Shown one piece after another: positions 2,365-22,181 of a stretch of 28,433 bases of DNA. Position 1 is the stretch's first letter. The number at the start of each line of letters is the position of its first letter. This stretch comes from a virus (Duplodnaviria > Caudoviricetes), in the IMG/VR virus record IMGVR_UViG_3300044513_002415, positions 1-28,433 of that record; one strand, given 5' to 3'. The notes beneath the pieces were generated by a model. That model was not told the origin of the DNA. It saw nothing but the letters and a program-made list of their open reading frames with translations, and did no database searches. The translations under genes and the position numbers were made by a program.

Positions 2365-2371
2365 TTTATTT

Positions 2372-3055: not shown

Positions 3056-3210
3056 TACTTCTTTTTATTACCGTAGTTTTGTGGTCCACCAGCTTTAGTA
3101 CATCTTACACCCCAACCTGAAGCATAAGCGCTAGGCCAAACCTTAAATTTTCTTTTAGCAGCAGCTTTGCAAGCTGAACTAATTTTACCGTATAAAGGAC
3201 TATTTGCCAT
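3055..3210 (-). CDS. Unannotated 51-aa basic protein with K.KFKVWPSAYA.GW motif
   Basis: MANSPLYGKISSACKAAAKRKFKVWPSAYASGWGVRCTKAGGPQNYGNKKK*. 11-nt overlap with the stop of the giant gene; the PSAYA motif is familiar from small phage proteins. Confidence 0.85.
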   Translation of the reverse strand: MANSPLYGKISSACKAAAKRKFKVWPSAYASGWGVRCTKAGGPQNYGNKKK

Positions 3211-6200
3211 CTTTATTTTTGTTTTGTAATTTTATAATTTCTTTGACTCTATCATCTTCTTTAGTTAAAGCTCTAATTTCTTTTTTAGTTAATCCTAAAT
3301 CTAAAAGCATCTTAACTTGATCTGACTTGTTAAGATTAAATAATTTTTTAACTTGTTTCTGTGTTTCAGTTAATACTGGTTCTGCTTCAGCTAAACCAAA
3401 ATATGGTAGTCCAACATCCCAACCTGACCAACCTAAAGCTAATGCAACTTTTTGCCAGTTTTCAGTAGCAGGATTTAATATATTACGCATGTTATTCATT
3501 TTCATAACAGCTCTATCTAATGGTATATTAAATATAGCTGATATTGTTTGCGCTCCTGCTAAATAAGCTGGATTGTCCATGCTGAAACCTTTTTCTTTTA
3601 TTTCTTTACCATTCCAAGAAACAGTTCTAGCAGCTGATTTTAATTTTCTAATTTTAGATCCAAGAGCTGGAGCTATAGAAAGTAAATCATCAAGAGCTTC
3701 CTCAAACTTAGGCGATTTTTTATCTGCCTGTTCGGCTATTGTCATTAAAGAATTTTTAACACCAGCTATAACAGCACCTTGAATACCAAGACCTTTTAAC
3801 TGCGAATCAATAGCGCCGTTTAAAGCTCTTTCTAGTTTTTGCTCTTTGTTAGCTTCTGTTAACTCTTCATCATCTTCATCATCATCAAACAATGCCCAAG
3901 CTAATCCACTTTGCAGTGCGTTAAACATTATGTTTTGTATTGCACCGTAATATACTATTTTAGATATATTAGCTCTCCAATCACCTCTTTTATTAACTAG
4001 ATCTTGAACAGCTCTCTTTTGTATACGTACATACTGAAGCTGAGTGTTACCAAACTGAAGTATAATACGTCCAATCAAAGATCTTTGTTGCTGACTAATA
4101 CGCATTGGACTACTAGACTGCTGATTTTCTTCAGCTATTAACCTAAAGTCTTCAAAAGCTTGTTGCTCTGCTAACTTTCTGTCCATACCTTGTTCAACCA
4201 AAGATTCTATTCTATTTCTATAAAATGTAGCACCACCAGAAGCAATAGCAAAACTATCTGCATATCTAGTAAATACAAAACCTTTGTTAAGTAAGTATGA
4301 TATAGCAGCGTTAACTTTATTTTTGCTACCTTCAACAGCATCAGCTATTTCAGATTCACTTACATTGATTTTAAGACCATCTCGTCTTTCAAGCAAGTAA
4401 TCAGAGTTCATAAGAGTTAAGAAGTCACCCCAAAATTGTTTTTGGTTAGCAAACGCTTTACCCGCCTTTAATATATTATTATCACCCCAATTTATAAAGT
4501 TTACCGCAGATATAGTCTGTAATACAGCAGATCTTGTGTTTAAGAACATTATAGCACCAACAGAGTTGTTTAACCAGTCTAGTATTTGATTAGAAACTCT
4601 ATCACCACCTAATGGTCTGTTACTACCACTTTTCATTGCTCGAAGCGAGTCTTTCAATGCTTCTACATACTTAACACCAAAAGCAGCTTCAAGTTTATTC
4701 ATATTCTTTTCAGAGAATATAATGTCTACATTTTCTTGCCACTCTTGTAAGTACTCTGCTCTATTGACTTTATTGATACCCGATATAACATCTGTTGTAA
4801 TGTTACCTGCTGTCCAGTCTTTATCTGGCTTTGGATATGGTTTGCCTTTTTGTATATTAACAAGTTGATCAGCAAAAGCCTGTAGCTCTGGATCAGCTTT
4901 AATAAAATCTGTTAATCTTTTTTGATCACGCTTAGAAAGCCCTGGAACTTCTATTCCTTGAGCATCCCATATATAAGTTCTAATAGCGTGCTGATATGAA
5001 TATTTAGAAATACCAGTTTCTTTTTCTAAAGTTTTTGGTACACCTTTAAATTGTTTCTTTAAAGCTTTGTAATCTCTACCAGCTGCAACCTTAGCTTGTG
5101 ATATAGCCATTTCAGCTCTGTTAAAAGGATCTAATAGATTTTCCTTATAAAAAGCCATTTGAGCATCACCAACTTTTCCTTTGCCTAAAGTCTTATAAAG
5201 CAAACCTAAAAAGTCTTCAGCTGATGGCGTTGTAAAGAAAGTAAACTTACCTTTGTTTGCGCCTACTGTTTTAGCTTTAGCAGCAGAATAATCTTTGTAA
5301 GATTCGATACCTGTTTTTTGTTCTATAATATCGTTGAATACTTTATCAAAAGTTTTACGTTTACTAGCTTTAGCTTGCTGTACTTTTGATTTAACATCAA
5401 CTTGACTAAGTACATCTTTAACAGCTTGAACATTTTTAACAGCGTCATCAGCAAAGTAAAAGTCGTTATAACCTTCAGCAGCTTTATCAGCTATCCATCT
5501 ACCTTTTGCTTCAGCAGTTCCATCACCAAGACCTGTTATGTTTTTTAAAGGTATATCAATACCATTAACTTTCATAAATTCTTGTATAGGTTTAGCAGCA
5601 TCAGCAGGTCTTGCTGTTAATATAAATATATCTTCAGTACCTCTTACTTTAGCTATTTTTTGAGCTACGCTGAATAATGGTCCTTTTTCACCTTCAATAA
5701 CTTTGCTAAACTCTCTAAAATCAAACTTTGCGCCTTGACTTTCTAGAACATTATATTCAGTGGCAAAGTCACTTGCATCAACTTTACCAACTTTGTTTGC
5801 GTTTATGCCAGCATAAACCTTTTGTAAAAAGTCATTAGGTAATGGTTTACCATATTCTATAGTTTCTGTGTTAATTTCGTATAAACGATCACCAAAGTCT
5901 TCTCTATATTTTTTTAAGCTCTCTTGAACACTTTCGTAAGTTTTCTTTACGACAAAATCAGGTAATGATCTTTCTGCTCTAGCTTTATTTCTTTCAATAG
6001 CTGTCTCAAGTGGTGTAGTAGCTACAACCATGTGTACTTCATAACCAGCATCTTGTAAAGCTTTTATTTTCTTAGTAGTAGCATTGTAAGAAGCGCCTGT
6101 ACCATCTATTACCATACCATTACCTGCAGCGGCGTATTTATCAAACTTAGCTACAGCGGCTTTTCTAGCAGCGGCACCAAGCTTAGATCTTAGTGATCTT

Positions 6201-9200
6201 TGCTCCGCTGTATAATCAGATTCTTTAGCTGGTAATTTAGACTCAGCTTTCATTGCTTCTAATGCTATATCTTGATTAACTACTTTATAACCACGTCTAC
6301 CAAGCTGTAATCCTTTGCCGACATTTGTTTTACCAGCACCAGGGCCACCAACCATAAATATAGCTTTTAAGTTTGTAGCACCTTCGCTAAATCCACCTTC
6401 TACATTTGGAACAGTATATAATACTTGACTTTTAGATCTAGCCAATGTATCGTCAAAGTCGAACACTCTAATCTTTTTAACTGGAGCATCAGGACGTCTA
6501 GCTTTGTTTAAAGCTTCATCTAAAATACTTTGATTATAAATATTTTGTTGAGCAGATATCTTCTTTTTGCTCTCCATAGATTTAGGAAGAACAGTATTTA
6601 AAGCGTTTTCAACTTTAGGAACATCTTTAACGCCTTGTTCATTAAGTTTTAAACCACTTGGTGTTATGCTAAATGTTTCAAAAACTGTTTTACCTGTAGA
6701 CAAAACTATATTACTAGGATCTATACCACCTCTAGTATTTGCAACATTTATATTAAAGTATCTAGCCCAAATATTGTCAGTTACTTTCCAACCTTCAGGA
6801 GTCATAGCTATATAATTAAAAGGTTCGCCATTTGGCTTTTTACCTTTTAATTTTTTATCATCAGCCAAAGCTAAAGCACCTTGAAAATAATTTTTTTCAA
6901 TATTTTTAAAATCTTTATTTATTGTTCCTGCAAACGCAGAGTTAAATAAATATTTAGCAACTAGACTTGCCGGCATTGTATGTTCTTCTACTATACCGCT
7001 AGAAACATCTTTAGAATAAAACTTAATAGGTGCAGATGTTCTAACAAAGTGGTTCATTCCTTGACTAGTGCTAGAAAGCAAGGCTATTATAAATGAAGTA
7101 TTGTTTTTATTTTCTTTCATTAAAGTTTCAAAAACTTTAAATAAATCTTTAAGTCCTTGAAGCTTAGCTTGTTGTTCTTTTTTAAACTGCTCGCTGTTAA
7201 ATTTATTTATAAATCTTTCACTTACTTTACCTTGTCTGCCTCCAGTTACATATGTGTCTCTAAATACCGCTTTGCTTATATTGTCATTTTCTTTAGCAAA
7301 AACCGCGTCTTGCAGTAAAATACCTAATTCACCTAAAGTGCCATCTTGTTTTAATAATCCAGATGTAAAAAAGAAATTTCTTTTAGCCGCACTCATTCCA
7401 GCATTAGCAAAAGTTCCATTTGTAAAAAAAGATTTTGGAACTCTAGGCGCTAACACGTTAACAACCCAGTCTTGCATTTTTTTAACATCTTCAGAGTTTT
7501 TAGAGCTTATAAAATCGACATCAGCTTTCTTAGCAATATAACTCCATCTTTTGTTTTCAGCAGCTAATTCGTCAGAAACTTTTTCAAAAGCTTGGTTTTC
7601 TATAAACATGTTTATATCTTCAACAGCTTTTCTTTTGCTAAATTTAGCTCCACCAACAGCTCTTTCAGCAGTTGTAGATACTAGACTTTCAAACATACGG
7701 TTTCTAATATGCAGGTTTAATAAACCTCGTATTGTTTGACCAACAGCGTCTCTATATATTGGCTTAACAGGCTTTTGTCTAATAAGATCCATATAATCTT
7801 TTAAAGTACCAGTTAACTTACCATTTGTATACAATGCGTTCATTACGTTTCTAGGTAAGAAAGTACCTTTACCAAAACCATCTTTAGTTTCTGGTAATCT
7901 AGCAAAATCATTATTAGCGTTTTTAAGTAAAAACTGTTTAGCTGTTGTTAAACCTTCAGAATCTGTTTTCTGATAGTTTCTAGTTTTATCAGTTATAGTT
8001 TGAGGATTCAAACCAAACATACCAGCATATATATCTGCTACAGTTTTAGGTACATTTCTAGTCTGACCAAAAGTTTTTATATCTTGACCTTTAAAAGCTT
8101 CTTTTGTAGCTTCTGTTATTCTAGTTTCAACTTCAGCTTTATCTTTAGCGCCTACTTTTTCTACTTGCGCTTGCGAAAACTCAACTGTTTCAGTAGGTTT
8201 TTTGGCTATTGGTTTTTCTTTCGTAACGGTTTCATCAACTTCTTCAGCTACAACTCCTTTAGCTTCTGTTACATCAGTTGTAAATTCTTCACCTAAAACT
8301 CTACGTGAAGCTTCAATAGCTCTAGATGGTAAAAACTTATTAATATAAGCAGCTAATGGCACGCCTGATTCTGGTTTGTATTCCATTATTAAATCAAGTA
8401 TACCTCTTGGTCCTGTTTCTATTTCATCTGTAAGTAGTTGACGATCAAAATTAGGCGCTTGACTTCTAGACTCTACTATTCTATTTGTGATAGGTTTAAA
8501 CTTGTTTATAATGTCCATAGCTGCAGAAACACCTTGGTCATCATATAGTCTTTGAACTTCTTGAGAATCTTCTACTCTTTTACTTTCTTTAGCTATTGAT
8601 TGTTTTAAGTCTGTTATTTCTTGAGGAGCTATATCAACTTCAACACCTTCTACAGCGGCTTTTTTTAACCCTCTAGAAAGACCTTGTTGTCTATGAACAC
8701 TTCTGTTGTAATCTTTTATAAAGTTTAATACGTCTTTACCGTTTTTAAACTTGACTTTCATACCCATAGCACTCAATGCTCTACGTATAAAACCACCTAT
8801 TTTATCACCTATAGTTTCATTTATCTCAATAGTACCTTCTGTTAAAGCTTCACTAGCAAGAGTTAAAACCTCTTCCATAGTATCAGCTTCTGATATATTA
8901 GCGTCTTCTACATATTGATCTAGTCTAGCTTTAAACTCAGGTTTTATTGTAATGTTTTCGTTTGTTTGTAGTTCATTTAATAATGACTTACCTAAAGCTA
9001 CGGCTGCTTCTGGTTTATTTTTAACAGTTTCATAAAGCACAGCATGTCCTGTTTCGTGCTGACCTTCTGTAAACGTTCTATCTTCCGTAGCAACTTCTTT
9101 GTTTAAAACTATAATTCTACGACCATCAGGTAGAACAACGAATGTTCCATAGTTATCAGAGTTTTTAGTATCTATTTCACTACCTTCTTCTTTCAATGTT

Positions 9201-10864
9201 TCAATAGCTGAATCAACATCTTCTTGAGTTTCAAAAGACTCAAAGCCTACACCTATTTCTTCCGCTATTTTTTTAGCACCAATATCTATTTTTTCAGATT
9301 TATCTTTTGTAATTAAATCACCTAATTGTTTGTCTATTTCAGATAATCTTTCTGATTGTTCTTTAGTTAAACTTGGGTTATCTATTGACTTTATTTCTTG
9401 CTTAAGCTTTTTTTGCTCTACAACTAAGTTAACTATAGGAGCTTTATTTTTAGTGCTAATACCTAAAGGTTTAATAGTATTTAAAGCGCCTTGTATTTCT
9501 CTGAAATTATTTTTAATTTCGTTAGATTTTTCTACAGTAAAAACTCCTTGTCCAACTTTTTCATTTAATTCAGCATCTAATTTTTTCTGTGTAAATCTAT
9601 TTTCAGTTAACTCTGAAAGTCCTTCTGTTAGATCTGGAGATTCATAAGCGTCAGTTAGATTTTTATATTCAGTTTTATTTAGATCGTTTTTAACGCTATT
9701 ATCTTCTAAAGTATTTCTAATTATTTTACCACCTACTCCAGTCGTACTCATACCACCGCCCATAGCTCCACCTACTAGAAAAACATCTATTACCTCTTTA
9801 AAGTAATTATCAAAAGCATCTTTTTTACCCAATATAACAGCATCAGCCATTCTATTTATTGTTTCTGTAGCTGATTCAGATAAACCTTCAGCGCCATAGT
9901 CTTTGCCTATACCCAACATTACTTGAGTTAAAGATTTCTTAACTTCATTTGCACCTTTACCTGAAAGATTTTTAAACATCTGACCGCCAATCTTTTTGGT
10001 AGTTACTTCAAGCAGAGCTTCTGAAGCACCTTTAACCGTAGAATAACCAATAGTTTTTAAACTTAGTTCTTCACCTTCTTTTTGAGCTTCAGCAGAAGCA
10101 CCTGCCGCTTCTCCTGCAAATATAGATGCTATACCGACATATGGTATCATAGACTGAACAACTGATGGTAAAGATCCTAAAGCGTCTGAAGCTGTTCTAA
10201 CTGTAGCTTCTACAAAATTACCCTTAGCATATTCTTCACCTATAGTTGTTTCAAATTGAGTTAAATCTTCTCTTATTTTTTCAGCTTTTTTAACTGACTC
10301 TTCGTAGTTTTGTAAACCAGTGTTCGCTAAATCTGTTAGACCAGGTTGAGGAGATATATTAGCTAAAACTTGCTTAGTTAAAGGATCTAAAGCGTCATAT
10401 CTAGCTTTTTCTTCGTCGGTCATAAACTCTCTAGAAATAGCGGCTTGAATTTCATTTAAAAATGTAGGTACTCTTGATAATTTACCTAAAGCATCTACTG
10501 TTGCTGCTTTTATTTTAGTACCTGTTTCTTGCCAAAAATCCCAATCACCATCTTTTTTTTCTTCAACGGTGTCAGATGTTACATCTTGATCAACTTGTGG
10601 TGATACCGAAAAAGTATCTTCCAAGCCAAATTCCGTAGCGGGTTGTGGTGCTTCTTGAGGTCCCATTGACGGAGCAACTGCACCCGGTACACCGTCTTTT
10701 TTCTTTACTGTACCAAGATCTACTTTATCAAGCTCTACAGTTTCTGAAATTAAAACTTCATCTTCTTCTTTATTTTTGTTTTTCCAATCTTTAGTTTTAG
10801 AGAGGATTTCATCTTGAGACAAACCTTGATCTTGTAAAGATGCTACATATTCTAGTAATGTCAT
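3200..10864 (-). CDS. Giant polyvalent internal virion (ejection) protein, 2554 aa
   Basis: Located after the tail genes; I see no Cys; Gly/Ala-rich hydrophobic segments near both ends. Motifs: HETGH (aa 603-607), sigma-region-2-like segment (~aa 770-855), EEHTMP (~aa 1293), HAD DFDDT (aa 1469), LTAR (aa 1749) and ADD (aa 1805), Walker A GGPGAGKT (aa 1506). Confidence 0.8.
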   Translation of the reverse strand: MTLLEYVASLQDQGLSQDEILSKTKDWKNKNKEEDEVLISETVELDKVDLGTVKKKDGVPGAVAPSMGPQEAPQPATEFGLEDTFSVSPQVDQDVTSDTVEEKKDGDWDFWQETGTKIKAATVDALGKLSRVPTFLNEIQAAISREFMTDEEKARYDALDPLTKQVLANISPQPGLTDLANTGLQNYEESVKKAEKIREDLTQFETTIGEEYAKGNFVEATVRTASDALGSLPSVVQSMIPYVGIASIFAGEAAGASAEAQKEGEELSLKTIGYSTVKGASEALLEVTTKKIGGQMFKNLSGKGANEVKKSLTQVMLGIGKDYGAEGLSESATETINRMADAVILGKKDAFDNYFKEVIDVFLVGGAMGGGMSTTGVGGKIIRNTLEDNSVKNDLNKTEYKNLTDAYESPDLTEGLSELTENRFTQKKLDAELNEKVGQGVFTVEKSNEIKNNFREIQGALNTIKPLGISTKNKAPIVNLVVEQKKLKQEIKSIDNPSLTKEQSERLSEIDKQLGDLITKDKSEKIDIGAKKIAEEIGVGFESFETQEDVDSAIETLKEEGSEIDTKNSDNYGTFVVLPDGRRIIVLNKEVATEDRTFTEGQHETGHAVLYETVKNKPEAAVALGKSLLNELQTNENITIKPEFKARLDQYVEDANISEADTMEEVLTLASEALTEGTIEINETIGDKIGGFIRRALSAMGMKVKFKNGKDVLNFIKDYNRSVHRQQGLSRGLKKAAVEGVEVDIAPQEITDLKQSIAKESKRVEDSQEVQRLYDDQGVSAAMDIINKFKPITNRIVESRSQAPNFDRQLLTDEIETGPRGILDLIMEYKPESGVPLAAYINKFLPSRAIEASRRVLGEEFTTDVTEAKGVVAEEVDETVTKEKPIAKKPTETVEFSQAQVEKVGAKDKAEVETRITEATKEAFKGQDIKTFGQTRNVPKTVADIYAGMFGLNPQTITDKTRNYQKTDSEGLTTAKQFLLKNANNDFARLPETKDGFGKGTFLPRNVMNALYTNGKLTGTLKDYMDLIRQKPVKPIYRDAVGQTIRGLLNLHIRNRMFESLVSTTAERAVGGAKFSKRKAVEDINMFIENQAFEKVSDELAAENKRWSYIAKKADVDFISSKNSEDVKKMQDWVVNVLAPRVPKSFFTNGTFANAGMSAAKRNFFFTSGLLKQDGTLGELGILLQDAVFAKENDNISKAVFRDTYVTGGRQGKVSERFINKFNSEQFKKEQQAKLQGLKDLFKVFETLMKENKNNTSFIIALLSSTSQGMNHFVRTSAPIKFYSKDVSSGIVEEHTMPASLVAKYLFNSAFAGTINKDFKNIEKNYFQGALALADDKKLKGKKPNGEPFNYIAMTPEGWKVTDNIWARYFNINVANTRGGIDPSNIVLSTGKTVFETFSITPSGLKLNEQGVKDVPKVENALNTVLPKSMESKKKISAQQNIYNQSILDEALNKARRPDAPVKKIRVFDFDDTLARSKSQVLYTVPNVEGGFSEGATNLKAIFMVGGPGAGKTNVGKGLQLGRRGYKVVNQDIALEAMKAESKLPAKESDYTAEQRSLRSKLGAAARKAAVAKFDKYAAAGNGMVIDGTGASYNATTKKIKALQDAGYEVHMVVATTPLETAIERNKARAERSLPDFVVKKTYESVQESLKKYREDFGDRLYEINTETIEYGKPLPNDFLQKVYAGINANKVGKVDASDFATEYNVLESQGAKFDFREFSKVIEGEKGPLFSVAQKIAKVRGTEDIFILTARPADAAKPIQEFMKVNGIDIPLKNITGLGDGTAEAKGRWIADKAAEGYNDFYFADDAVKNVQAVKDVLSQVDVKSKVQQAKASKRKTFDKVFNDIIEQKTGIESYKDYSAAKAKTVGANKGKFTFFTTPSAEDFLGLLYKTLGKGKVGDAQMAFYKENLLDPFNRAEMAISQAKVAAGRDYKALKKQFKGVPKTLEKETGISKYSYQHAIRTYIWDAQGIEVPGLSKRDQKRLTDFIKADPELQAFADQLVNIQKGKPYPKPDKDWTAGNITTDVISGINKVNRAEYLQEWQENVDIIFSEKNMNKLEAAFGVKYVEALKDSLRAMKSGSNRPLGGDRVSNQILDWLNNSVGAIMFLNTRSAVLQTISAVNFINWGDNNILKAGKAFANQKQFWGDFLTLMNSDYLLERRDGLKINVSESEIADAVEGSKNKVNAAISYLLNKGFVFTRYADSFAIASGGATFYRNRIESLVEQGMDRKLAEQQAFEDFRLIAEENQQSSSPMRISQQQRSLIGRIILQFGNTQLQYVRIQKRAVQDLVNKRGDWRANISKIVYYGAIQNIMFNALQSGLAWALFDDDEDDEELTEANKEQKLERALNGAIDSQLKGLGIQGAVIAGVKNSLMTIAEQADKKSPKFEEALDDLLSIAPALGSKIRKLKSAARTVSWNGKEIKEKGFSMDNPAYLAGAQTISAIFNIPLDRAVMKMNNMRNILNPATENWQKVALALGWSGWDVGLPYFGLAEAEPVLTETQKQVKKLFNLNKSDQVKMLLDLGLTKKEIRALTKEDDRVKEIIKLQNKNKDGK

Positions 10865-10876: not shown

Positions 10877-11923
10877 TTATAGGTTATTAGCTTCGATGAA
10901 TGCTTGTGCTTTAGCTATTTTAGCTTCTTGTAAATCAAAAATAGCAGCGTCTTCTGGAATTGTAGGTAACTGATTTTTAGTAAACTGAAGTAAATAATTA
11001 TTAATAAAGTAATCTTTATATTTTTTAGAGAACTCATCTTTTTTACTTTGATCTAATGGTAAATCTTCTGTATAAGACCAGTATTTACCTTCAGACAAGT
11101 AAACGTTCCAAGCAGCTATAGTTTCTTCCTCAGAAGACATTACAGCAGCTATCTCAGCGTCTATAAAGGGTTTTGAAACTCTTTGTATTTTATCTATATC
11201 GTATTTTAATACATTTCTACCTTTACCATTACCTATTTCTATAATTTCATAATCAAAGCTACCATCTGCGTTTTTTAGCACAAACTCTTCTTTTATTTTA
11301 GCGTTAGGTTTTAATTGGTCATTCTCACCAATATCTGATGTTGGAAACACATTGATTTCAGTTAAGAGCTTTTGCATATCCTTACTTAACTCAGGTGTCG
11401 ATGCAACTATTGTAGTATCAGATTCATTAAGAGAACTTAAAGCAGAACTATTTATTACTAATGGCTTTTCAAAAGCAGGTCCTGTAAAAACAATATCTTG
11501 ACTTCCATCTTCTAATAAATGTAAAGCAATATCATAGCCATCAGTTTTAGAAAAACCTGGTCTTCTTTGTAATATACAATTAACAACAGTATACTCGTAG
11601 TTGTTGTTTGGGTCAAAGTTTGCGTCTTCTGTTATTTCTACATTAGATAAAATCATAGCCAAAAAATCTAAAGCAGCTTGAGGCGCTTGCTCTAGTTGCT
11701 TTATTTTATTTAGTTCATACTCACAATTATCAGACAAGCAATTATTAGTTTCTACAGCTATTTTAAGCTTAGCATATACTTTACCAGTGTCTCTAAAAGC
11801 TTTACCTAGTATATCAAAATTAACATCAGATGATCTAGCTATATACTCTTTATTAAAGCCCATGGCGCTGCTTTCGACCATTTGCTTTATAGTAAGATTT
11901 GTAATTACATTTTTATTACTCAT
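10877..11923 (-). CDS. Hypothetical acidic protein (348 aa), possibly internal virion protein
   Basis: Long ORF in the operon between two ejection-type proteins; no motif recognised. Confidence 0.5.
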   Translation of the reverse strand: MSNKNVITNLTIKQMVESSAMGFNKEYIARSSDVNFDILGKAFRDTGKVYAKLKIAVETNNCLSDNCEYELNKIKQLEQAPQAALDFLAMILSNVEITEDANFDPNNNYEYTVVNCILQRRPGFSKTDGYDIALHLLEDGSQDIVFTGPAFEKPLVINSSALSSLNESDTTIVASTPELSKDMQKLLTEINVFPTSDIGENDQLKPNAKIKEEFVLKNADGSFDYEIIEIGNGKGRNVLKYDIDKIQRVSKPFIDAEIAAVMSSEEETIAAWNVYLSEGKYWSYTEDLPLDQSKKDEFSKKYKDYFINNYLLQFTKNQLPTIPEDAAIFDLQEAKIAKAQAFIEANNL

Positions 11924-11935
11924 TTCTTTTTATTA

Positions 11936-12607
11936 TTAACCAGCTGATGGTGAGTTAAACGCTCCAGATAATCCTGCCTGAGCCAAACTACCAAACATAC
12001 CTGTTATAGCCGATGTTTCGTCTGCTCTAGCTTGAGCTTCAGCACCTTTTGCTGCACCCATTAAAGAAGCTGTCCTGTCTATTTCTTGTTGCTGTCTTCT
12101 TTCTGTTTGAGAGAAAACAAATTCTTTACCAGCAGCTTCAACGCCTTGCATTCTAACTTCTTCTGCTAGTTTTTGTTGTTGCGTTTGTTGTTCGCCTTGA
12201 GCTCTTAGTTTTTCATTTTGAGCTTCTTGAGATTCTATACTAGCCGCAACACCTCTTTTACTTCTTAAAGCTGCATTGGCTAAAGCAGTAGCTCCACCAG
12301 CAGAAGCTCCAGTAGCTCTTAAAGTGTCTAATGTATTTGCCAAAGATAAATCAGCTTCTTCTATTTGTATTTCAGCCGCTTTAGTAGCTACGCTTAAACT
12401 AGAAAAAGGATTAGAAATCATACTACTTAAGCTTTCAGCACCTTCGTAAGGATTTATAATTTCTTGTCTATTAGCTTCTAAGTTATTTAGTTTTGCTTGA
12501 AGTCTTCTAGCTTCTCTAGCAGCTCTTCTTTTGGCTTTTCTAGCTTTGCTAGAACCAAAGAGACCACCAGCGATGCTAGCTACTCCACCTATTATTGCTC
12601 CAACCAT
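11936..12607 (-). CDS. Putative ejection / DNA-pilot-type internal virion protein (223 aa)
   Basis: Gly-rich hydrophobic N-terminus (MVGAIIGGVASIAGGLFG) followed by a basic patch, an Ala/Gln-rich coiled coil and a Gly-rich hydrophobic C-terminus; no Cys. This layout is typical of small podovirus ejection proteins. Confidence 0.7.
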   Translation of the reverse strand: MVGAIIGGVASIAGGLFGSSKARKAKRRAAREARRLQAKLNNLEANRQEIINPYEGAESLSSMISNPFSSLSVATKAAEIQIEEADLSLANTLDTLRATGASAGGATALANAALRSKRGVAASIESQEAQNEKLRAQGEQQTQQQKLAEEVRMQGVEAAGKEFVFSQTERRQQQEIDRTASLMGAAKGAEAQARADETSAITGMFGSLAQAGLSGAFNSPSAG

Positions 12608-12625
12608 TATTTTATATTTTTACTA

Positions 12626-14341
12626 TTAATATCCATTGTTAAGAATATAAGTTGATCCAACTGAGAAAAGTTGTTTTTCTCCACCGGGATCAGTTGATGA
12701 ATCTGTTGAAAAAGTTACGTCAGCGTAAAAACCTTTTACACCAGATATTTTATTGCCAAAATTAATTTCTCTCTCTGATACTACAGAGTCGTTTGTTAAG
12801 CTTGCAACGTATTTATTTTCTTTTAAATTAAAACCAGCTTGATATTTATCCAAAGGAGGCGTTGATGTTCCGTAAGCTGTTAAGTAATCATTTCTGTTAA
12901 CAACTAAGGATATATTTAAATGATCATACTGCTGCACGTTTATATCTTGATTTACAGTTACTGTATTTGTTGCGCTTTCAAAGCTAACAACAGTTGTATT
13001 ATCTGGAACACCATCACCAGTAACTACACCTCCTATAGGTATTAAAAATACTTGACCATATGTTTGACTAGGGTTTATTTGAAACGTAGTTAACGTTGAA
13101 GGCGTAGAAGCTACTAACACGTCTAGGTTTGTAACTACGTATTCTCCTTCGTAATAACTTTTTATTCCAGAAGCTTCATCAAATGTAATAGGACTTGTTT
13201 CGTTTGTCCAGCCTTGTGGTGTATATAACTCCCCTGTTCTATCTGACGTGAGATTATTCATTTGCCAACCGCTAGTACCTTCGTAACTTATGGTTTGAAA
13301 AGTCTTAGAATTTGCTGGACTTTGATTTAACACAAAACTTATAGAACTTTGACTTGTAACACCATAAAAACTACCTCTTGAAACATTTGCACCAGTCGCG
13401 GTGGTTGTAGCATAATGCTTAAATAAACCTCCGTTTTTAGCGCTATAAAAAACATTTCTTAAGCTAAATATTTGCTCTGGCTTATAAGTAAAAAAGCTAA
13501 CCCAACCTTTAGCTTTTTCGTCAAATGATAAAGTATTCCATTTATTAGAATTTGGATCAGCCACAATGTTTGGCTGCATTGAAACTACGTATTGCGAGTT
13601 ATGAACATCATACCCACCTATAACGTATCCTTGTGTATTGTTTCTATCAATAGACGTTAAAGTATCTCTAAAGAAATCAACCATTCCATATTCTGACACT
13701 TCAGTTATACCATCTCCACTTAACCTAAGAATAGCGTTGTTATTTTTATCAGAAAAATACTTTCTATAACCATAAACAGCAAAACTTTCAGGGTTTTTGC
13801 TTATACCGTATTCACCAGGATAAGGCTGTATTGTTCCTATAACTAAATTAGATGTAGTTACAGAGCCACCGCCTTCAGCCGAATAAATAGCGTCTTTGTC
13901 TATTAAAGCTCTTGATACTTTGTTTTCTTGAAATATAACAAGATTTGTATCTTCTGCATAAAGTTTTTGTATTGACCCATTTGAAGGGTCTGCACTTTTA
14001 GTAATATCTTCAGCAACAGAAAAAACATTAGACTCGTTAACTCCTGTTCTAGAATTAAATATACCAGAATATATTAAAGAATTTACTCTAAACGAAGCTG
14101 ATTCATCTTCTTCAACTAAATAAGCTTTAGCGCCAAAATCAACAGATGTATTATTATATCCGCCTCTAATTCTAGATTCTTCTATAGCCCAGTTTTGAGG
14201 TTCTAAAACATCATTAACAACTTTGTATCCACCTAGATCACTAGGTATACCTAAAGATCCATTCCAAATAGGTTCGTCCGATGAATTTGTCTTCTTTAAT
14301 ACAAAAGAGTTAAAATACTTAACCTCTATTACTGCTCCCAT
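12626..14341 (-). CDS. Tail protein, C-terminal part of a muzzle/stabilisation (P22 gp10-like) beta-propeller protein
   Basis: Beta-rich; GSIQKL...LVIFQENKVS, YGISKNPESFA.YG...YF.D, GGYD and W.SF..Y.P blocks resemble the C-terminal half of crAss-like tail stabilisation proteins. Confidence 0.65.
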   Translation of the reverse strand: MGAVIEVKYFNSFVLKKTNSSDEPIWNGSLGIPSDLGGYKVVNDVLEPQNWAIEESRIRGGYNNTSVDFGAKAYLVEEDESASFRVNSLIYSGIFNSRTGVNESNVFSVAEDITKSADPSNGSIQKLYAEDTNLVIFQENKVSRALIDKDAIYSAEGGGSVTTSNLVIGTIQPYPGEYGISKNPESFAVYGYRKYFSDKNNNAILRLSGDGITEVSEYGMVDFFRDTLTSIDRNNTQGYVIGGYDVHNSQYVVSMQPNIVADPNSNKWNTLSFDEKAKGWVSFFTYKPEQIFSLRNVFYSAKNGGLFKHYATTTATGANVSRGSFYGVTSQSSISFVLNQSPANSKTFQTISYEGTSGWQMNNLTSDRTGELYTPQGWTNETSPITFDEASGIKSYYEGEYVVTNLDVLVASTPSTLTTFQINPSQTYGQVFLIPIGGVVTGDGVPDNTTVVSFESATNTVTVNQDINVQQYDHLNISLVVNRNDYLTAYGTSTPPLDKYQAGFNLKENKYVASLTNDSVVSEREINFGNKISGVKGFYADVTFSTDSSTDPGGEKQLFSVGSTYILNNGY

Positions 14342-14349
14342 ATTGTAAT

Positions 14350-14365
14350 TATCACTTATTTTTAT
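14350..14365 (-). promoter_or_regulatory. Repeated intergenic motif ATAAAAATAAGTGATA (candidate phage promoter or operator), copy 1
   Basis: 15 of 16 nt identical to 21270-21285; same orientation; both upstream of tail genes. Confidence 0.5.
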
Positions 14366-14371
14366 TTTAAA

Positions 14372-17300
14372 TTACAGTTCAACATTCCATCTATACTGAT
14401 CTACTTCTTCTTGAGGTATATTGGTTGTGGCTTGTAGTTCAGCATCATACGTAACAATAGCGTTTGATGGCTGCGTATAAATACCTTTACTTGTTCCTGA
14501 TTCTATTCTTCTAATATACTTGCAATTTGTCCTCCATTGTGAATGTAACTCCGCTTCACCTTGTACGAAAGAAGCTCTTAGCATCCTAGCACCTGTTCTA
14601 CCAAAAGGAAGATTAACGTCACTAGCTCCACCTAAAATAGTTAAATTATTACCAACTCTGTTTATTCCTCCACCTGTAAAACCTGGCCCAAAACCTGTAT
14701 TATTACCACCTTCTATCAAAGAACCTACGTAACACAACTCTGGAAAATTTGGAAATTGCCCTGGGTCATCGCTGTTTGTAAAAGGCTGACCAGCGTATGT
14801 TTGGTTGAGGTCATTAAAACCTTGCTCGCCATTAATAATGCCACCGATATCTGTAGACCAAGGCCCGTTGTACAAGTACCAGCCTTGAGCAGCTACAGGT
14901 CCTTCTGTTACTTTAAAAGTTGTATAGTATTGCCAACACCGTGATGATAAACATGGACCTTTCATAGCCAAATTAGGATTAAAAGGACTATACGCTCTAG
15001 TAAAATACCTATAAGTTTTAACATCTTCAACTCTAACACCAAAATCAACAACAAAATCAACTTCAACTGAATCATTTTCACCTCCAGCGTCAGTAACTCT
15101 TACAGTAAATTCATATCTATCAGCAGGTATAAATATACCTTGTATATTAAAAAGAGTTATTTCAAAGTTACCATTAGGGTTTTGATATGCGTTATTTAAT
15201 TCAAAAAATCCAGATTGAGTAATATTATTTCCTGAAGAGTTAATTATAGATACAATTTCAACACTGTTTTCATTTAATATATTAGATAAATTAACGTTAC
15301 CACTTCCGTTCTGACATACTATAGTAGTAATTTGGTAAGTTGATGGGGTTACTAATATTTCTTCTCCAGGACTTGGGCTAGATATGGTTGGGCTTAAATT
15401 TGCAAGATCTAGCTGTAAAGAAAATGGTGTTACTAGATCGTTTACTGTAGCTTGAAGATTTATAGTAAATTTTCTTAATTCGTCGTTATTATCAAAAAAT
15501 ATATTATTGAAATAATTTGTATTAACTCTTATATTATACTCGTTAGCACCTGGAACAACCTCATAAAGTTCAAAATAATTTACGTCTTCTGGTATAGGTG
15601 TTACATAGTTTTTTTGACTAACTATTTCTAGCGGAGAATTAATACTAGAAACTGGAACTTGAATTCCAAAATTATCAACAATAAAAATACTTGATGAAGA
15701 AACATTATCACCGTCTTGAATGCCTTCATTAAAAGGTGTTGGGTTGAAGCCAAATAGATCAGCTCCACCAGAAGATTCATTTAAAACAGCATTATTCAAA
15801 TCTTCTATCAATCCAGAAGTAGAAGTTTCCCAAAATATATCTAACAAACTCTCTTCAGGTTTTGTCTCATATACAGCTAAGTATTGAATACCTGGTAATT
15901 CTTCACCTGTCACCACTATGTCTTTTCCGCGAGTAACTGAAACGCTTTGGTTAACTTCTATTTTACCCAAAGTAGAAATATCAACGCTAGTTCCAGCGTT
16001 TACATTAACTACATTGTTTAATGTTATGACTTTAGGTGATACCGATGAATTACTAGAAATAATGATTGTTCCATCAGGTATACCAGGTCCTACAACAGAA
16101 CTGTTATTGGCTGGAACTGGATCGTTGGTTGTTATAGTGTTATTCGTAGTAGCAGTTGCAGTTGTAATTGTAACAGGTGACGAAGGTGGTGTCCAAGCTG
16201 ATCCTGAAACTTCTAAATCTTCAGGAAGCCCTTGACCAGAAACTTTACTACCTATGACTATAGTACTGACATCGCCAGAAACGTTCGCTACTTGTATTAT
16301 GTTTGTTGTTGCAGAAACACCAACTGTAGCTGTTACGGGATCATAATTTGTTGTTGAAATTTGCCCTATCTTTTTATTAGTACTTATTTTAGCTATAAGC
16401 GGATTTGAATCTACAGAATAAAATTGAGGAAAATAGTTTGGTCTAGGAGCGGTGTCTCCAATTGTAGTATATTCGAATAAATCAGCAACAGTAGATATAG
16501 TAGAAACAGTATCAGATGATCTTTTCGGATAATATTGAGTGTTTGCAGCGCCTAAATTGCTTGTTGGATCTATGAGTATGTCCGTGTTTTCTACTCTACC
16601 AAAAAGTTGAACAGAACTTCTAAACTGTCTTTGTTGAGGTCCTACCTCGCTTAAATCTCTTGGCACTTTATTTATATTGTCATTTATTAATACAATATGA
16701 GAGGTTTTACCTATTTCCAAAGATTGATCTACAGGATACGATGCCATTATTCCAGGCAAATAAACATTATAATATTCTTGCTCTGTTTGTTTTATTACTA
16801 TCTTATAACTGTACCAACCTAAAGGATTATAATCTAAACTAGTAGGATCTCCATTGTATATCCCAGGAGTTCCTAGTTGGTTGTTTTTGGTGGAAGATAT
16901 AACTTCATTAAATAGAATCTTTAAGGAATCTCCCGCCCAACTACCGGGTATGTAACTAGCAGAGTTATCTTTATACGCTGAATATATTGTATCTCCAGAA
17001 AAACTAAAAAGACCAACTTTAACTGTATCTTTGTTGTTAGATAATAAAACAGTAGATGTTCTACCGTATCTATCAGAGAGAACTATACCAGCTTGATAAT
17101 TTCTATTTGTTTTAACTGTACTATTCGGATATTCTATAATACTTGTTGTTTGCGTAGTATCAGCCCCTGGTTCGAAAAAAACAATACTTGAAGCTGCTAA
17201 ACCAGTGACACTTTCACTTAAAACTATATCATAATTACCTCCGCTAGCGGTTATAGAAACAACCTGAGTGTCTTCTGGTATAACACCTGAGCCAGTTACT

Positions 17301-19195
17301 AAAGTCATAAAGTCGCCAACATTTGGTAAAATTGACCCAGCTTTTACTGTTATAGTGGTTCCTGTATATGGACCACCTTGAACTGACGCTGTAGTTGATT
17401 TTAAATCAAAGTCAGATTTTTCAGACACAGCGACATTGTAATTCAAACTAGGTGGTGGAGTATGCTTATCTTGATAGTTAGCATATATAACTCTATTGCC
17501 AGATACTTCTTGAGCTAAGGCTTTGACAGGTATTTTATCAAAAACTCTCGTTGTAGTTTTTTCTGGTAAAGTTTTAAAAGGATTTTTTGACTGATAATTA
17601 TAAGAAAAATAGTTTGGATTATCAGCGTTTAATATAACATCGTCCAATAATGTTTGAGGTAAATCTACTGTAACTTGGCCACCAGTAGAAGGATTGTTTA
17701 AATCTATTGGATCGTAAGAAACGACTTTAGGTTTCCCTACAATACCAAAACCTGTTATTAAACTTCCAACATTAATACCACCTTGCAGATTATCTATATC
17801 AAAAACAGTTTGATTTGTTACAGCCCCATTAACGTTAAAAGTTCCGGCAGAACTTATAACATCTTCAATAGGAACCGTGTCTACAACTTTTACCGCTACA
17901 GAATTAGACTCTTTGTATAATATATCTATGTTTTTTATTTTTAAACTATTAGCTATATTATAATTTGAAAAAGGAAGAGGTATTTTTAAGTCTATACTAT
18001 TAGCTTTATTTTCAACGAAACTCACTATAGTACTTCTGTACGCATCAGACTGATCATTAACTTCACTTAAGTCATCTTTTTTAACATACATAAAATATCC
18101 ATCTTGCTTTGGTATAAAAGCAATTTGAGTAAAAGGAGCAAACAAAGAATATTCGTTATCTTCAAACTGAAATCGGTAACTAAACCTAGCAAATTTATCT
18201 TCTAAAAAATCAGGATCTCCAGCAAAATCTGGGTCATAGTAAGGATTTGGGTTTAATATTATTTCTGTATTTGCAGTTAAATTTTCAAAAACAGAACTAG
18301 TAGCTGTTATTGTCCAAAAAGGATTGGCAGGATCTGTAGTGTCATTGTAAACAGCTGTATCAACTTCCGAATTTGGTATAGGTATTATTTTGCCACTAAC
18401 ATTATCTACATATGCTAAGCTAGAACCTGAGTCATAAACATCTGCTTGAGTTATTATATCTCCTTCAAAAGATTTTAGTTCTATTGTAGATTGAGGCGTT
18501 GCTCCTATAGCAGTTCTTACATTTCCAGCTCCACCATTTGGATAATACTTGCTAACAACATCTTTTATAGTAGATTCATTCTCTCCATCTACTGTAGATA
18601 AATAGCTTTTTTCGTAAAGTTCTATACAAGAATAAGGGTTATATTTTGCAACTGATATTTGATCTTCAGTAGTATAATAAGTTGGATTAGATAAATTAGA
18701 TGGATTAGCTAGATCTACATTTATTTTTCTTGGCTGATTTCTGTTGTCTGTCCAAAACAACAAGCTTTCTAACATATTTACACCATATATAGGATTTGTT
18801 TTAGAGAAATTTAAAAAGGCTCCTTGGACAAGTAAAGTTAAGCTATTGTTTTGAACATTACAGGCAAATATATAGTTTTTAGCATCTGGACTGTAAGGAG
18901 GATTATTTGAAAATGAATCATTTATGTATGGGTAGTTTGTAAGAAAAACATATACTGTATTTAATTGATCATTTGCTAAATATCCTATGCAGTAAAGATT
19001 AGATACTCCAGTAGCCGCTTCGAAATCAAAAACCTTATTGTTACCTAAAACATTTTCAACCGATCCAACAGAGTCACCTTCTGATCTACTTATTTGTACA
19101 TTTACAGCATTTCTATATTCTCCGCTTGGTATCAAGCGAGCGTCTAAGTCTTTATTCATCTTAGACTTTAAAAAAGTATTTATAGCTTTAGCCAT
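14372..19195 (-). CDS. Large tail protein (muzzle/stabilisation-like N-terminal part) with inserted beta-repeat modules and an Ig/cadherin-like C-terminal extension
   Basis: F...KMNKDLD.RL.P.GEYR.A.N and LLFWTDN.NQPRKIN and RFSYRF...D.EYS..APF blocks are typical of crAss-like tail stabilisation proteins; follows the ring-protein genes. Confidence 0.7.
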   Translation of the reverse strand: MAKAINTFLKSKMNKDLDARLIPSGEYRNAVNVQISRSEGDSVGSVENVLGNNKVFDFEAATGVSNLYCIGYLANDQLNTVYVFLTNYPYINDSFSNNPPYSPDAKNYIFACNVQNNSLTLLVQGAFLNFSKTNPIYGVNMLESLLFWTDNRNQPRKINVDLANPSNLSNPTYYTTEDQISVAKYNPYSCIELYEKSYLSTVDGENESTIKDVVSKYYPNGGAGNVRTAIGATPQSTIELKSFEGDIITQADVYDSGSSLAYVDNVSGKIIPIPNSEVDTAVYNDTTDPANPFWTITATSSVFENLTANTEIILNPNPYYDPDFAGDPDFLEDKFARFSYRFQFEDNEYSLFAPFTQIAFIPKQDGYFMYVKKDDLSEVNDQSDAYRSTIVSFVENKANSIDLKIPLPFSNYNIANSLKIKNIDILYKESNSVAVKVVDTVPIEDVISSAGTFNVNGAVTNQTVFDIDNLQGGINVGSLITGFGIVGKPKVVSYDPIDLNNPSTGGQVTVDLPQTLLDDVILNADNPNYFSYNYQSKNPFKTLPEKTTTRVFDKIPVKALAQEVSGNRVIYANYQDKHTPPPSLNYNVAVSEKSDFDLKSTTASVQGGPYTGTTITVKAGSILPNVGDFMTLVTGSGVIPEDTQVVSITASGGNYDIVLSESVTGLAASSIVFFEPGADTTQTTSIIEYPNSTVKTNRNYQAGIVLSDRYGRTSTVLLSNNKDTVKVGLFSFSGDTIYSAYKDNSASYIPGSWAGDSLKILFNEVISSTKNNQLGTPGIYNGDPTSLDYNPLGWYSYKIVIKQTEQEYYNVYLPGIMASYPVDQSLEIGKTSHIVLINDNINKVPRDLSEVGPQQRQFRSSVQLFGRVENTDILIDPTSNLGAANTQYYPKRSSDTVSTISTVADLFEYTTIGDTAPRPNYFPQFYSVDSNPLIAKISTNKKIGQISTTNYDPVTATVGVSATTNIIQVANVSGDVSTIVIGSKVSGQGLPEDLEVSGSAWTPPSSPVTITTATATTNNTITTNDPVPANNSSVVGPGIPDGTIIISSNSSVSPKVITLNNVVNVNAGTSVDISTLGKIEVNQSVSVTRGKDIVVTGEELPGIQYLAVYETKPEESLLDIFWETSTSGLIEDLNNAVLNESSGGADLFGFNPTPFNEGIQDGDNVSSSSIFIVDNFGIQVPVSSINSPLEIVSQKNYVTPIPEDVNYFELYEVVPGANEYNIRVNTNYFNNIFFDNNDELRKFTINLQATVNDLVTPFSLQLDLANLSPTISSPSPGEEILVTPSTYQITTIVCQNGSGNVNLSNILNENSVEIVSIINSSGNNITQSGFFELNNAYQNPNGNFEITLFNIQGIFIPADRYEFTVRVTDAGGENDSVEVDFVVDFGVRVEDVKTYRYFTRAYSPFNPNLAMKGPCLSSRCWQYYTTFKVTEGPVAAQGWYLYNGPWSTDIGGIINGEQGFNDLNQTYAGQPFTNSDDPGQFPNFPELCYVGSLIEGGNNTGFGPGFTGGGINRVGNNLTILGGASDVNLPFGRTGARMLRASFVQGEAELHSQWRTNCKYIRRIESGTSKGIYTQPSNAIVTYDAELQATTNIPQEEVDQYRWNVEL

Positions 19196-19201
19196 TTAAT
19201 T

Positions 19202-20434
19202 TTAGTGTTTTATCCATTTAGATTTACCTCTCATAACTTGAACTATTTCAGTTAGTTTTATGTTAGATAATCTAATTTTAGCGTTTCTTAATTTAGAGCT
19301 TCTGTCTCTTTTAAGTCTTTGAACTAAATACTCAGGTTGATTAGCTCTAGTAGATACTATGTAGTGTAGTATAGAAGCGTATAAAGCTTCTTCTGCTAGT
19401 TTAGGTATTTTAGTATCTTTGTCGTATGCTAAACCATCAGAGATGTATTCTAAAACAATTAACTTATCAACTAGGTCGCTTGAAAAGGACATCTTGCCTT
19501 CTCTTTCGTCTATTGTAAAATAACCATTTACATTAGCATATTGTGGATCTGTACCATAAAATTGACCTACATTCCAGTTACCGTTATATCCGTAAGCATT
19601 GCTAAAATAAGCCCAATCATCTAAATCAAAATTATTATTTAGAATCTGAGTATTCATGCTATCAAATCTTTCCTTAGTTAAAGAAGTTCCTTCTATGTTT
19701 TCACCAAAGTTGTCTTGAGTAGGAACACCTTTATTATCTTGAATAGGTGTATTATATGGTATTGTAGTCAAGTTATTAGTAGGAAATATAGGTCTTTTTA
19801 CACCATATTTATCTATCCAAGATACTTTAACGTAGCTAACATAGTCTTGAGGAAGAATTATATTTAAGCTAGATGGTATTGTAAGTTCTTGAGAGTGTAT
19901 GCTTTTTAAAGTGTCATAGCTGAACTCTTGTAAGGATCTTTTAGCAAAAAATAATACATCTGATTTTTTAGCTGTTTGAATTATTTTACCATCACCAACA
20001 TAACCAACTATAAAATTATCTATAGCATCGTTTAGTGTTATATAGCTGTAACTACCGTAATTATTTTCAACAGTATCGCCTAAGGCTTCTTCAGATGGAG
20101 AATCAGCATAATTACCACCATCTAATTTTTTCAATTGAACAACTAAAAAAACATCAGTAGGTAGATCACCTACTACTGTTATTGTGTTATCCTTAACAGT
20201 ATATTCTGATGTATATTCTGTCCAGCTACCAGGATTTGGTAAACCTGTGGTGCTTGTGTATATTTTAAAATTATTTAAAGTATAATTTATGTCGCTAGGA
20301 TCATAAGATCCAAAAACTAAATCTGTATCAAATGTAGTTGTGAAAGTTTGATTAGAAAAAGGAGCAACTCCTACACCTCTAAAGCCTTGAGCACCTTGAT
20401 AATACTGTTGGTTTGTTTCTGTTATTAAACTCAT
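19202..20434 (-). CDS. Tail tubular / ring (adaptor) protein
   Basis: Position, plus LPQDYV.YV..SW.D..G, L.YISDGL and .IPKLAEEAL...I motifs of head-tail adaptor (P22 gp4-like) ring proteins. Confidence 0.65.
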   Translation of the reverse strand: MSLITETNQQYYQGAQGFRGVGVAPFSNQTFTTTFDTDLVFGSYDPSDINYTLNNFKIYTSTTGLPNPGSWTEYTSEYTVKDNTITVVGDLPTDVFLVVQLKKLDGGNYADSPSEEALGDTVENNYGSYSYITLNDAIDNFIVGYVGDGKIIQTAKKSDVLFFAKRSLQEFSYDTLKSIHSQELTIPSSLNIILPQDYVSYVKVSWIDKYGVKRPIFPTNNLTTIPYNTPIQDNKGVPTQDNFGENIEGTSLTKERFDSMNTQILNNNFDLDDWAYFSNAYGYNGNWNVGQFYGTDPQYANVNGYFTIDEREGKMSFSSDLVDKLIVLEYISDGLAYDKDTKIPKLAEEALYASILHYIVSTRANQPEYLVQRLKRDRSSKLRNAKIRLSNIKLTEIVQVMRGKSKWIKH

Positions 20435-20438
20435 TTAA

Positions 20439-21212: not shown

Positions 21213-21236
21213 TTTTATATTTTTATTATAATATAG

Positions 21237-21260
21237 TGGAGACTACTTTCGTAGTCCCCA
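21237..21260 (-). promoter_or_regulatory. GAAA-tetraloop hairpin upstream of the 257-aa gene (weak terminator or 5' stabiliser)
   Basis: Minus strand TGGGGACTAC-GAAA-GTAGTCTCCA: 10-bp stem with one G-U pair; no clean U-tract follows. Confidence 0.65.
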
Positions 21261-21269
21261 TCATATTAA

Positions 21270-21285
21270 TATCACTTGTTTTTAT
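21270..21285 (-). promoter_or_regulatory. Repeated motif ATAAAAACAAGTGATA (candidate phage promoter or operator), copy 2
   Basis: 15 of 16 nt identical to 14350-14365. Confidence 0.5.
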
Positions 21286-22106: not shown

Positions 22107-22134
22107 GATATAATAAAATTAAATAGTTAATAAT

Positions 22135-22172
22135 AAAAATCATGAGGCCGCAAAACGCGACCCCAAGATTTT
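22135..22172 (-). terminator. Intrinsic terminator after the major capsid gene
   Basis: Minus strand AAAATCTT-GGGGTCGC-GTTTT-GCGGCCTC-ATGATTTTT. The stem needs G-U pairs that work only on the minus strand, and a U-tract follows. Confidence 0.8.
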
Positions 22173-22181
22173 AAAGTATAA

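Follow-up and report, generated by a model that had tools for sequence, protein, structure and literature searches.

The window analysed here, the entire 28,433-nt contig of IMG/VR record IMGVR_UViG_3300044513_002415 and a partial phage genome, encodes a giant protein of 2554 amino acids near one end. Within it, a P-loop kinase of 206 residues (202 net) sits in place of the β-hairpin turn just after motif I of a HAD domain, and related phages carry the same hairpin empty, filled by a kinase, or filled by another module. We hold the nested architecture and the exchangeability of the hairpin contents with high confidence. The loop looks like a site where enzymes that likely counter host defences are exchanged, and less like one half of a fixed enzyme for RNA repair.

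A P-loop kinase nested in a HAD domain

A sequence-only reading of the window had proposed a kinase nested inside a HAD and guessed that it entered at the HAD flap, or C1, hairpin; both proposals held. The motifs lie where that reading placed them in the open reading frame (ORF) at 3200–10864 (minus strand), with HAD motif I at residues 1466–1475 (nt 6469–6440), the P-loop at 1501–1513, motif II at 1746–1753 and motif IV at 1802–1807. The kinase matched Pfam families AAA_33 (E 3e-15) and Zeta_toxin (E 5e-11) above the curated cut-offs. We collected relatives at 79 IMG/VR loci, some of which have the same HAD and no insert. Uninserted homologues carry a hairpin of the form strand-Pro-Asp-Gly-x-x-strand at the insertion point, and alignment with them mapped the insertion directly behind the hairpin-tip Pro that follows motif I, exactly as guessed. 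Motifs I and II are 77 residues apart in these homologues and 279 apart here. The size given earlier for the kinase, ~170 residues, was too small.

An AlphaFold2 model of residues 1463–1831, made from 26 nested sequences only, reached a mean predicted local distance difference test score of 86.6 and a predicted template modelling score of 0.74, with the hairpin strands flanking the kinase. In structural alignments against chosen representative structures, the two HAD halves of the model aligned as a single domain with the T4 Pnkp phosphatase (5uj0; Z 11.8, root-mean-square deviation (rmsd) 2.9, 123 of 142 residues), so that the flanking halves form one Rossmannoid HAD fold in the prediction, as had been supposed. 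A model of the uninserted HAD had the same order of elements and the same best match, T4 Pnkp (Z 10.3), with Pnkp1 at 9.9, values tied within 1 with unrelated HADs. The HAD profile gave no match to PDB sequences at E 1, and sequence alignment with the T4 phosphatase was unreliable past motif I, so we drew no residue-level comparison.

The catalytic motifs are intact in both domains, in agreement with the sequence-only reading. Across alignments A1 (26 rows) and A2 (23 rows), the motif I DxDxT, the motif II Ser/Thr, the motif III Lys and the motif IV acidic pair of the HAD are invariant or nearly so. All 8 of 8 close pairs showed purifying selection, with ratios of non-synonymous to synonymous substitution rates (dN/dS) of 0.03–0.14 in the kinase and 0.08–0.21 in both HAD parts together. 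HAD catalytic motifs were retained in every insert class; motifs I and II also served to select the sequences for that comparison, but are invariant in A1 and A2 too. A degenerate HAD serving as a mere scaffold is not favoured, given this retention and the HAD dN/dS range. Chance juxtaposition of motifs and chimeric assembly were rejected, since 118 of 120 homologue clusters among the matches listed cover at least 98% of the nested region.

Homologues of the HAD are numerous, with 1,902 representatives at 50% clustering (E up to 0.001). No cultured phage was matched by the uninserted HAD in tblastn searches, and neither the HAD nor this kinase motif set was found in the cultured relatives checked (phi40:1, Panino and elemoC).

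The hairpin as an exchange slot

For a census of slot states we pooled 210 locus ORFs with 263 proteins and dropped 11 without a complete motif pair, besides 3 more set aside earlier; the 462 left comprised 369 distinct HADs. The slot was empty in 204. A kinase occupied it in 129, a helical module of 44–47 residues in 20, a domain resembling ADP-ribosyltransferases (ARTs) of 130–139 residues in 15 and another insert of 69 residues in 1; these are counts rather than frequencies, as the searches were seeded with particular forms. All inserts are located at the same hairpin. ART-PolyVal was matched weakly by 11 of 13 ART-like inserts, the best at E 4e-5, under the curated cut-off.

Some HAD cores that carry the kinase are identical to others that lack it, which argues that slot contents are exchanged by recombination. 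The 153-residue cores of the kinase-bearing P0064 and the empty P0125/L070 are 100% identical, and kinase-form and ART-form cores are 92% identical. At the DNA level, the flanks of the insert are 90% and 96% identical between L013 and L070, which otherwise have little in common. In a FastTree phylogeny of 143 HAD cores, in which many nodes are weak, the kinase state changes at least 19 times by parsimony for 28 kinase tips. A single ancient insertion inherited vertically is not favoured, given the identical flanks across insert classes.

The two domains also occur apart, and the kinase can stand by itself within the giant protein. Among 77 kinase loci, 15 are not nested, 2 of them with a HAD ~1000 residues distant, and both domains resemble standalone viral protein clusters of 190–250 residues. 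Non-nested kinases are usually bracketed by Ser-centred linkers (of 14 distinct kinases, 11 on one side and 12 on the other, by a pattern loosened after inspection).

Several further features of the slot were observed. The insert leader (window 6406–6370, minus strand) contains a Phe-Ser dipeptide in 113 of 129 nested kinases, like the linker around standalone kinases, and is possibly a relic of capture from a serial form; in L023 and L024 the leader persists in the absence of a HAD. One or two DUF6934-like cassettes follow the HAD in L031 (ORF residues 2370–2780) and L040 (ORF residues 2365–2560), and after them comes a second copy of the last HAD strand, a duplication that looks like a recombination scar. 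Domains of similar appearance to these cassettes follow the kinase in gp53 of phage Atu_ph07. L021 and L040 are related giant genes, each with a nested kinase, that lie on opposite strands of one contig (IMGVR_UViG_3300025131_000066), through duplication or an assembly artefact.

Kinase residues and relatives

Walker A, NxD and lid motifs were present in 129 of 129 nested kinases and DGTG in 128 of 129, Walker A being a criterion of the class. With Walker A, the general-base Asp, the strand-3 Thr and the lid arginines in place, the kinase is predicted to work like a P-loop hydroxyl kinase. Its fold matches, ranked by Z, were the Clostridium thermocellum (Cth) polynucleotide kinase (Pnk) 4gp6 (16.1; rmsd 3.1, 164 aligned), 2rhm (15.5), PSTK (15.0), zeta (14.1), T4 Pnk (13.2), Kti12 (12.8) and AvrRxo1 (12.4), and its profile matched CthPnk at E 2e-6.

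Residues that contact the acceptor differ from those of both named families. Arg38 of T4 Pnk, or Arg41 of Cth Pnk, anchors the polynucleotide and is essential (PMC3902929, PMC2831316). At this position, three residues after the catalytic Asp, 164 of 173 kinases have Leu and 9 have Ile; a Glu follows at Asp+4 in 171 of 173. Judged by this anchoring residue, the kinase is not a member of the Pnk family. Zeta toxins contact UDP-N-acetylglucosamine (UNAG) through Arg120, Thr128 and Glu100 (PMC3062530). The Arg120 position is Ala, Gly or Asn in 172 of 172 kinases, the Thr128 position (taken at a fixed offset) is Thr in 0 of 172, and the Glu100 position is variable in six aligned sequences. Equivalents of zeta Asp67 and Thr118 are present. 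By its UNAG contacts, the kinase stands outside the zeta family too.

The closest cultured relatives of the kinase are in T4-like and jumbo phages, at 29–34% identity, and 31 polyvalent kinases form one clade beside those of HTVC008M and Melnitz. A gene for a HIGH-type nucleotidyltransferase adjoins the kinase gene in HTVC008M, and another HAD-type gene follows it in Melnitz. The names ‘zeta toxin’, ‘UDP-N-acetylglucosamine kinase’ and ‘chloramphenicol phosphotransferase’ that automatic annotation gives these proteins are unsupported. The literature searched assigned no substrate to the virion-packaged kinase relatives or to the HAD family, the former found in unrelated phages and the latter so numerous.

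Evidence for a virion location

Synteny and mass spectrometry data on relatives indicate that the giant protein is likely a virion cargo protein, which would be injected ahead of the DNA. In phi40:1, gp101 is syntenic with the giant ORF and annotated as structural by tandem mass spectrometry; in Atu_ph07, gp53 contains a homologous kinase. The virion proteome of Atu_ph07 lists gp53 with 31 unique peptides and 45.5% coverage; its abundance peaks in band 9, to which proteins of 22–24 kDa migrate (PMC6102473, Table S5). Full-size gp53 is 87 kDa, as against a band holding 22–24 kDa proteins, and the kinase piece between two Leu/Val-Thr-Glu sites has a calculated mass of 23.0 kDa. From the cutting behaviour of the T4 prohead protease, we infer that these sites of gp53 are cut. 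The virion location claimed earlier is supported only through these relatives. A literature search for elemovirus proteomics found nothing.

Genes gp53–57 of Atu_ph07 (L084 381–6560, plus strand) form a run of virion proteins with ART-like motifs and a common N-terminal leader ending in Leu-Thr/Asn-Glu, and gp53–56 are listed in the virion proteome (PMC6102473). In crAss001, genes after the muzzle gene encode cargo proteins that are found in virions and proposed to be ejected (PMC10172136). Head-packaged ARTs provide further context (PMC9503650), and injected polyvalent proteins have been proposed to target nucleotide signals (PMC7824862, PMC5512222).

What the kinase and HAD may do

Of four explanations we tentatively prefer one in which kinase and HAD are both injected but act independently, the substrate of the kinase being a small nucleotide-type molecule; coupled end healing ranks second, then a tRNA or protein target, then UNAG. 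The kinase probably phosphorylates a ribose or sugar hydroxyl of such a molecule, blunting host defence. Independence of the two enzymes is suggested by the kinase loci that are not nested and by the standalone viral clusters that both domains resemble. Among the three activities that the sequence-only reading had offered, nucleotide modification appears to fit best.

The proposed course of events builds on features seen in the sequences: the kinase is nested, both domains keep their motifs and are under purifying selection, inserts of different kinds use one site, and HAD flanks are identical whether or not a kinase is present. The two HAD halves would serve as homology arms, and recombination between related phages would swap the loop contents. 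By comparison with relatives, the protein would be packaged and extruded ahead of the DNA, and its own zincin domain may cut the Ser-centred linkers to free a unit of ~44 kDa. The weakest steps concern catalysis: the HAD may remove an exposed terminal phosphate from a nucleotide or nucleic-acid end, and the kinase may act on a diffusible nucleotide, at first guess an NAD+/ADP-ribose-type molecule. This guess draws on the ART swap, the HIGH nucleotidyltransferase in HTVC008M, the AvrRxo1 fold and the general proposal for polyvalent proteins and signals.

A bolder extension, which we regard as speculative, makes the HAD flap a socket into which injected effectors in general can be fitted. With its halves as homology arms, an abundant group of Bacteroidetes phages would be able to trade, through a single pair of crossovers, a kinase, an ADP-ribosyltransferase or small helical modules. 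The kinase would be the prototype of a family delivered in virions and also present in T4-like and jumbo phages, whose members phosphorylate a nucleotide immune signal and so silence it ahead of all phage gene expression. Natural alleles (empty, kinase, ART-like and helical) on near-identical flanks make the role of each injected enzyme directly testable.

Several observations weigh against two separate enzymes with a small-molecule kinase. The best fold matches of both domains are Pnkp modules (for the kinase, CthPnk at Z 16.1, tied with 2rhm at 15.5), several further top kinase matches act on RNA, and the long helix after the catalytic Asp bears conserved basic residues that could replace the missing Arg. 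Insert state retains some tree signal, with 33 changes as against 42.9 after shuffling (minimum 35) on a tree with many weakly supported nodes. Pairing also seems favoured: in a sample of 173 kinases, drawn with nested queries, 159 are nested, and those standing alone branch within nested clades. For this phage, activity, virion presence and a small-molecule substrate are all predicted, and a host ligase could do the sealing in a repair pathway.

Such observations lead to the second explanation, a coupled Pnkp-like enzyme whose HAD would remove 3′ or 2′,3′-cyclic phosphates and whose kinase would phosphorylate the 5′-OH of broken RNA or DNA, with sealing by a host ligase or a phage DNA ligase. 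Beyond the top structural matches, the catalytic Asp, third-strand Thr and lid arginines match T4 and Cth Pnk, the HTVC008M kinase gene lies two genes from a DUF6267 gene whose motifs appear ligase-like, and the HAD-type gene after the Melnitz kinase would suit the same scheme. Coupled healing is weakened by the essential Arg, absent in 173 of 173, by the lack of a recognised RNA ligase, by the occurrence of each domain alone and by a slot that holds other inserts or none; most sampled HADs have no kinase, and an ART-like domain can substitute for it. The ligase survey covered 18 relative genomes, 16 with a nested and 2 with a standalone kinase, and 12 of the 18 are at least 90% complete. RtcB and DUF6267 were each found in 0 of 18; PF09414 was matched in 2 of 18, in both cases by what look like small DNA ligases. 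These 18 genomes yielded no recognisable RNA ligase, the window’s own contig being partial; the Rnl1 (PF09511) search gave no match anywhere, controls included, so it had no positive control and a divergent ligase could escape. A ligase motif-I scan of 323 giant proteins returned 4 unconvincing matches. The dedicated Pnkp-like healing of RNA ends put forward earlier loses ground on these counts, and we consider coupled healing possible, if doubtful.

The DUF6267 protein of HTVC008M (L080 2236–3468, plus strand) has motifs like those of covalent nucleotidyltransferases (RNA/DNA ligases) and gave no match to PDB sequences at E 5. Its gene is ~52 kb from the kinase gene in Melnitz.

A third explanation gives the kinase a macromolecular target that is not a broken end, such as an aminoacyl-tRNA (the kind of substrate that PSTK uses) or a protein of the host, and makes the HAD a protein phosphatase whose active site is open. 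This explanation would accommodate the PSTK (Z 15.0) and Kti12 (Z 12.8) matches, the presence of Lem4 and MDP-1 among the HAD matches and the ART-like inserts of the same slot, which are thought to modify host proteins. It is unlikely, as these matches fall below or tie with those to Pnk and no tRNA-binding or targeting domain is attached. Least probable is a zeta-type UNAG kinase that weakens cell-wall synthesis or diverts the sugar-nucleotide pool, with the HAD reversing or limiting its effect: the Zeta_toxin match, an hhalign match to pSM19035 zeta at 94.6% over 114 columns, the zeta fold match, the retained Asp67 and Thr118 equivalents and the zeta-like kinases known in polyvalent proteins and MuF fusions (Iyer 2017; PMC5512222) are set against the lost Arg120 and Thr128 contacts, the varying Glu100 position and a Pnk-like lid without the zeta insertion, which also weaken the cell-wall-precursor option raised earlier.

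Genomic setting and other regions of the giant protein

The window holds a podovirus-type virion gene block comprising terminase, portal, capsid, connector proteins, a muzzle in two ORFs, two small genes and the 2554-residue ORF (Table 1). Capsid and portal match 85–87 records, the majority from Flavobacterium elemoviruses, Maribacter phage Panino and Cellulophaga phages including Pervagoviridae, and from these relatives the host is likely a member of the Bacteroidetes. Major capsid identity is 41–42% to Flavobacterium elemoviruses and 46% to Panino (41–51% across elemoviruses, Panino and MW202828). Gene order is identical to that of phi40:1, and the giant ORF takes the position of its last large gene, gp101. 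The N-terminal profile of the giant ORF, searched against a five-protein set, matched the same-position genes of Panino at E 6e-55, of elemoC (gp20) at 2e-9 and, weakly, of phi40:1 (a gp101 domain) at 6e-5.

Table 1. Features of the giant protein and the adjoining virion block (window coordinates).
Feature	Coordinates	Strand	Evidence
Virion block upstream of giant ORF (terminase, portal, scaffold-like, major capsid, connector/ring proteins, muzzle in two ORFs, two small cargo-like genes)	10877..28433	-	PHROG and Pfam crAss_MUZ_C matches
Modular (polyvalent-type) cargo/ejection protein, 2554 aa, final gene of virion block	3200..10864	-	Synteny with phi40:1 gp101; N-terminal profile matches
Zincin-like metallopeptidase region (HExxH aa 603-607 and downstream Glu), candidate self-processing protease	8579..9307	-	Conserved residues, weak Pfam
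Ser-centred linker motif aa 1430-1434, upstream of HAD-kinase unit; candidate cleavage site	6563..6577	-	Motif
HAD N-terminal part, aa 1463-1486: strand 1, motif I DxDxT (Asp1469, Asp1471), first hairpin strand up to Pro1486	6407..6478	-	Alignment and model
Inserted P-loop kinase, aa 1487-1692: Walker A Lys1512, catalytic Asp1532, Glu1536, DGTG, lid Arg1625/1629/1632	5789..6406	-	Pfam, fold
HAD C-terminal part, aa 1693-1831: second hairpin strand, short cap helix, motif II Thr1750-x-Arg1752, Lys1787, motif IV Asp1806/Asp1807	5372..5788	-	Alignment and model
Ser-centred linker motif aa 1832-1836, downstream of HAD-kinase unit; candidate cleavage site	5357..5371	-	Motif
C-terminal conserved region, aa 1850-2486	3407..5317	-	Conservation in homologues

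In the zincin region, His, Glu, His and the distal Glu are invariant in 32 homologues, 6 of which match Peptidase_M78 weakly. Four Ser-centred linker motifs stand at domain borders of the giant protein, the two in Table 1 and others at 8576–8590 and 7628–7645 (minus strand). Across 118 giant proteins the motif is enriched (133 observed versus 53 expected; maximum of 71 in 100 shuffles), and it is a possible target of the protein’s own zincin domain. Residues 763–875 (window 8240–8578, minus strand) resemble sigma factor region 2; their profile weakly matched two sigma-factor chains (E 0.07 and 0.08), ranked below an Argonaute-type match (E 0.01). A conserved domain at residues 1215–1420 (window 6605–7222, minus strand), with an invariant Glu-His-x-x-Pro and Arg in 23 homologues, is reminiscent of an HNH-like nuclease.

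The muzzle homologue is split, with ORFs at 12626–14341 and 14372–19195 (minus strand) matching the C- and N-terminal parts of one 1474-position PHROG; the muzzle is a single gene in elemoC and phi40:1. After the giant gene, window 550–2892 (minus strand) holds a cluster of short, very basic ORFs and an endolysin-like M15 peptidase, and the end of a ribonucleotide reductase gene lies at window 3–461 (plus strand).

Comparison with known systems

We found no report of a P-loop kinase within a HAD or of an exchangeable HAD flap among the papers listed by a non-exhaustive literature search. T4 Pnkp (PseT; 1ltq, 5uj0) and the Capnocytophaga-type Pnkp1 (4xrp) share with the giant protein the two folds, a minimal-cap HAD with a Ser/Thr-x-Arg motif II and the kinase Asp, Thr and lid Arg. 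Unlike T4 Pnkp, in which the kinase precedes the HAD in tandem, the kinase here lies inside the HAD, lacks the acceptor Arg38 and is embedded in a 2500-residue cargo protein; the domains also occur separately and no partner RNA ligase was recognised in the genomes surveyed. The Clostridium thermocellum Pnk is the best match in both fold and sequence, but here its Arg41 is replaced by Leu or Ile and there is no Pnkp-Hen1 context. Zeta/PezT UDP-GlcNAc kinases (1gvn, 2p5t) are alike in the Pfam match, the acidic-Gly-Thr-Gly motif of strand 3 and the catalytic Asp, and unlike in the missing Arg120 and Thr128 contacts, the Pnk-type lid and the absence of any adjacent antitoxin seen.

Phage polyvalent proteins (Iyer et al. 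2017, PMC5512222) are the nearest parallel at the level of the whole protein, which is likewise large and multidomain, has a zincin HExxH (invariant with its Glu in 32 rows) and carries ART-like and zeta-like kinase cassettes that vary among relatives. They differ in that cassettes here are placed inside another enzyme and not only strung in series; in the main text of that paper, term searches found neither the word ‘phosphatase’ nor a HAD domain. Polyvalent cargo proteins can diversify by insertion into a tolerant enzyme loop. The virion-packaged AAA_33/zeta-like kinases of HTVC008M, Melnitz, Atu_ph07 (gp53) and RsoM2USA, a sister group to the 31 polyvalent kinases, share the 29–34% identity, the Asn-x-Asp-x-x-x-Glu motif and the lid, but are standalone or serially fused and in no case seen inside a HAD. 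The presence of zeta-like kinases and ARTs in polyvalent proteins was already known; what the present analysis adds is the exchange at the slot, the absence of the arginine, a survey of ligases and evidence from virions on the kinase family.

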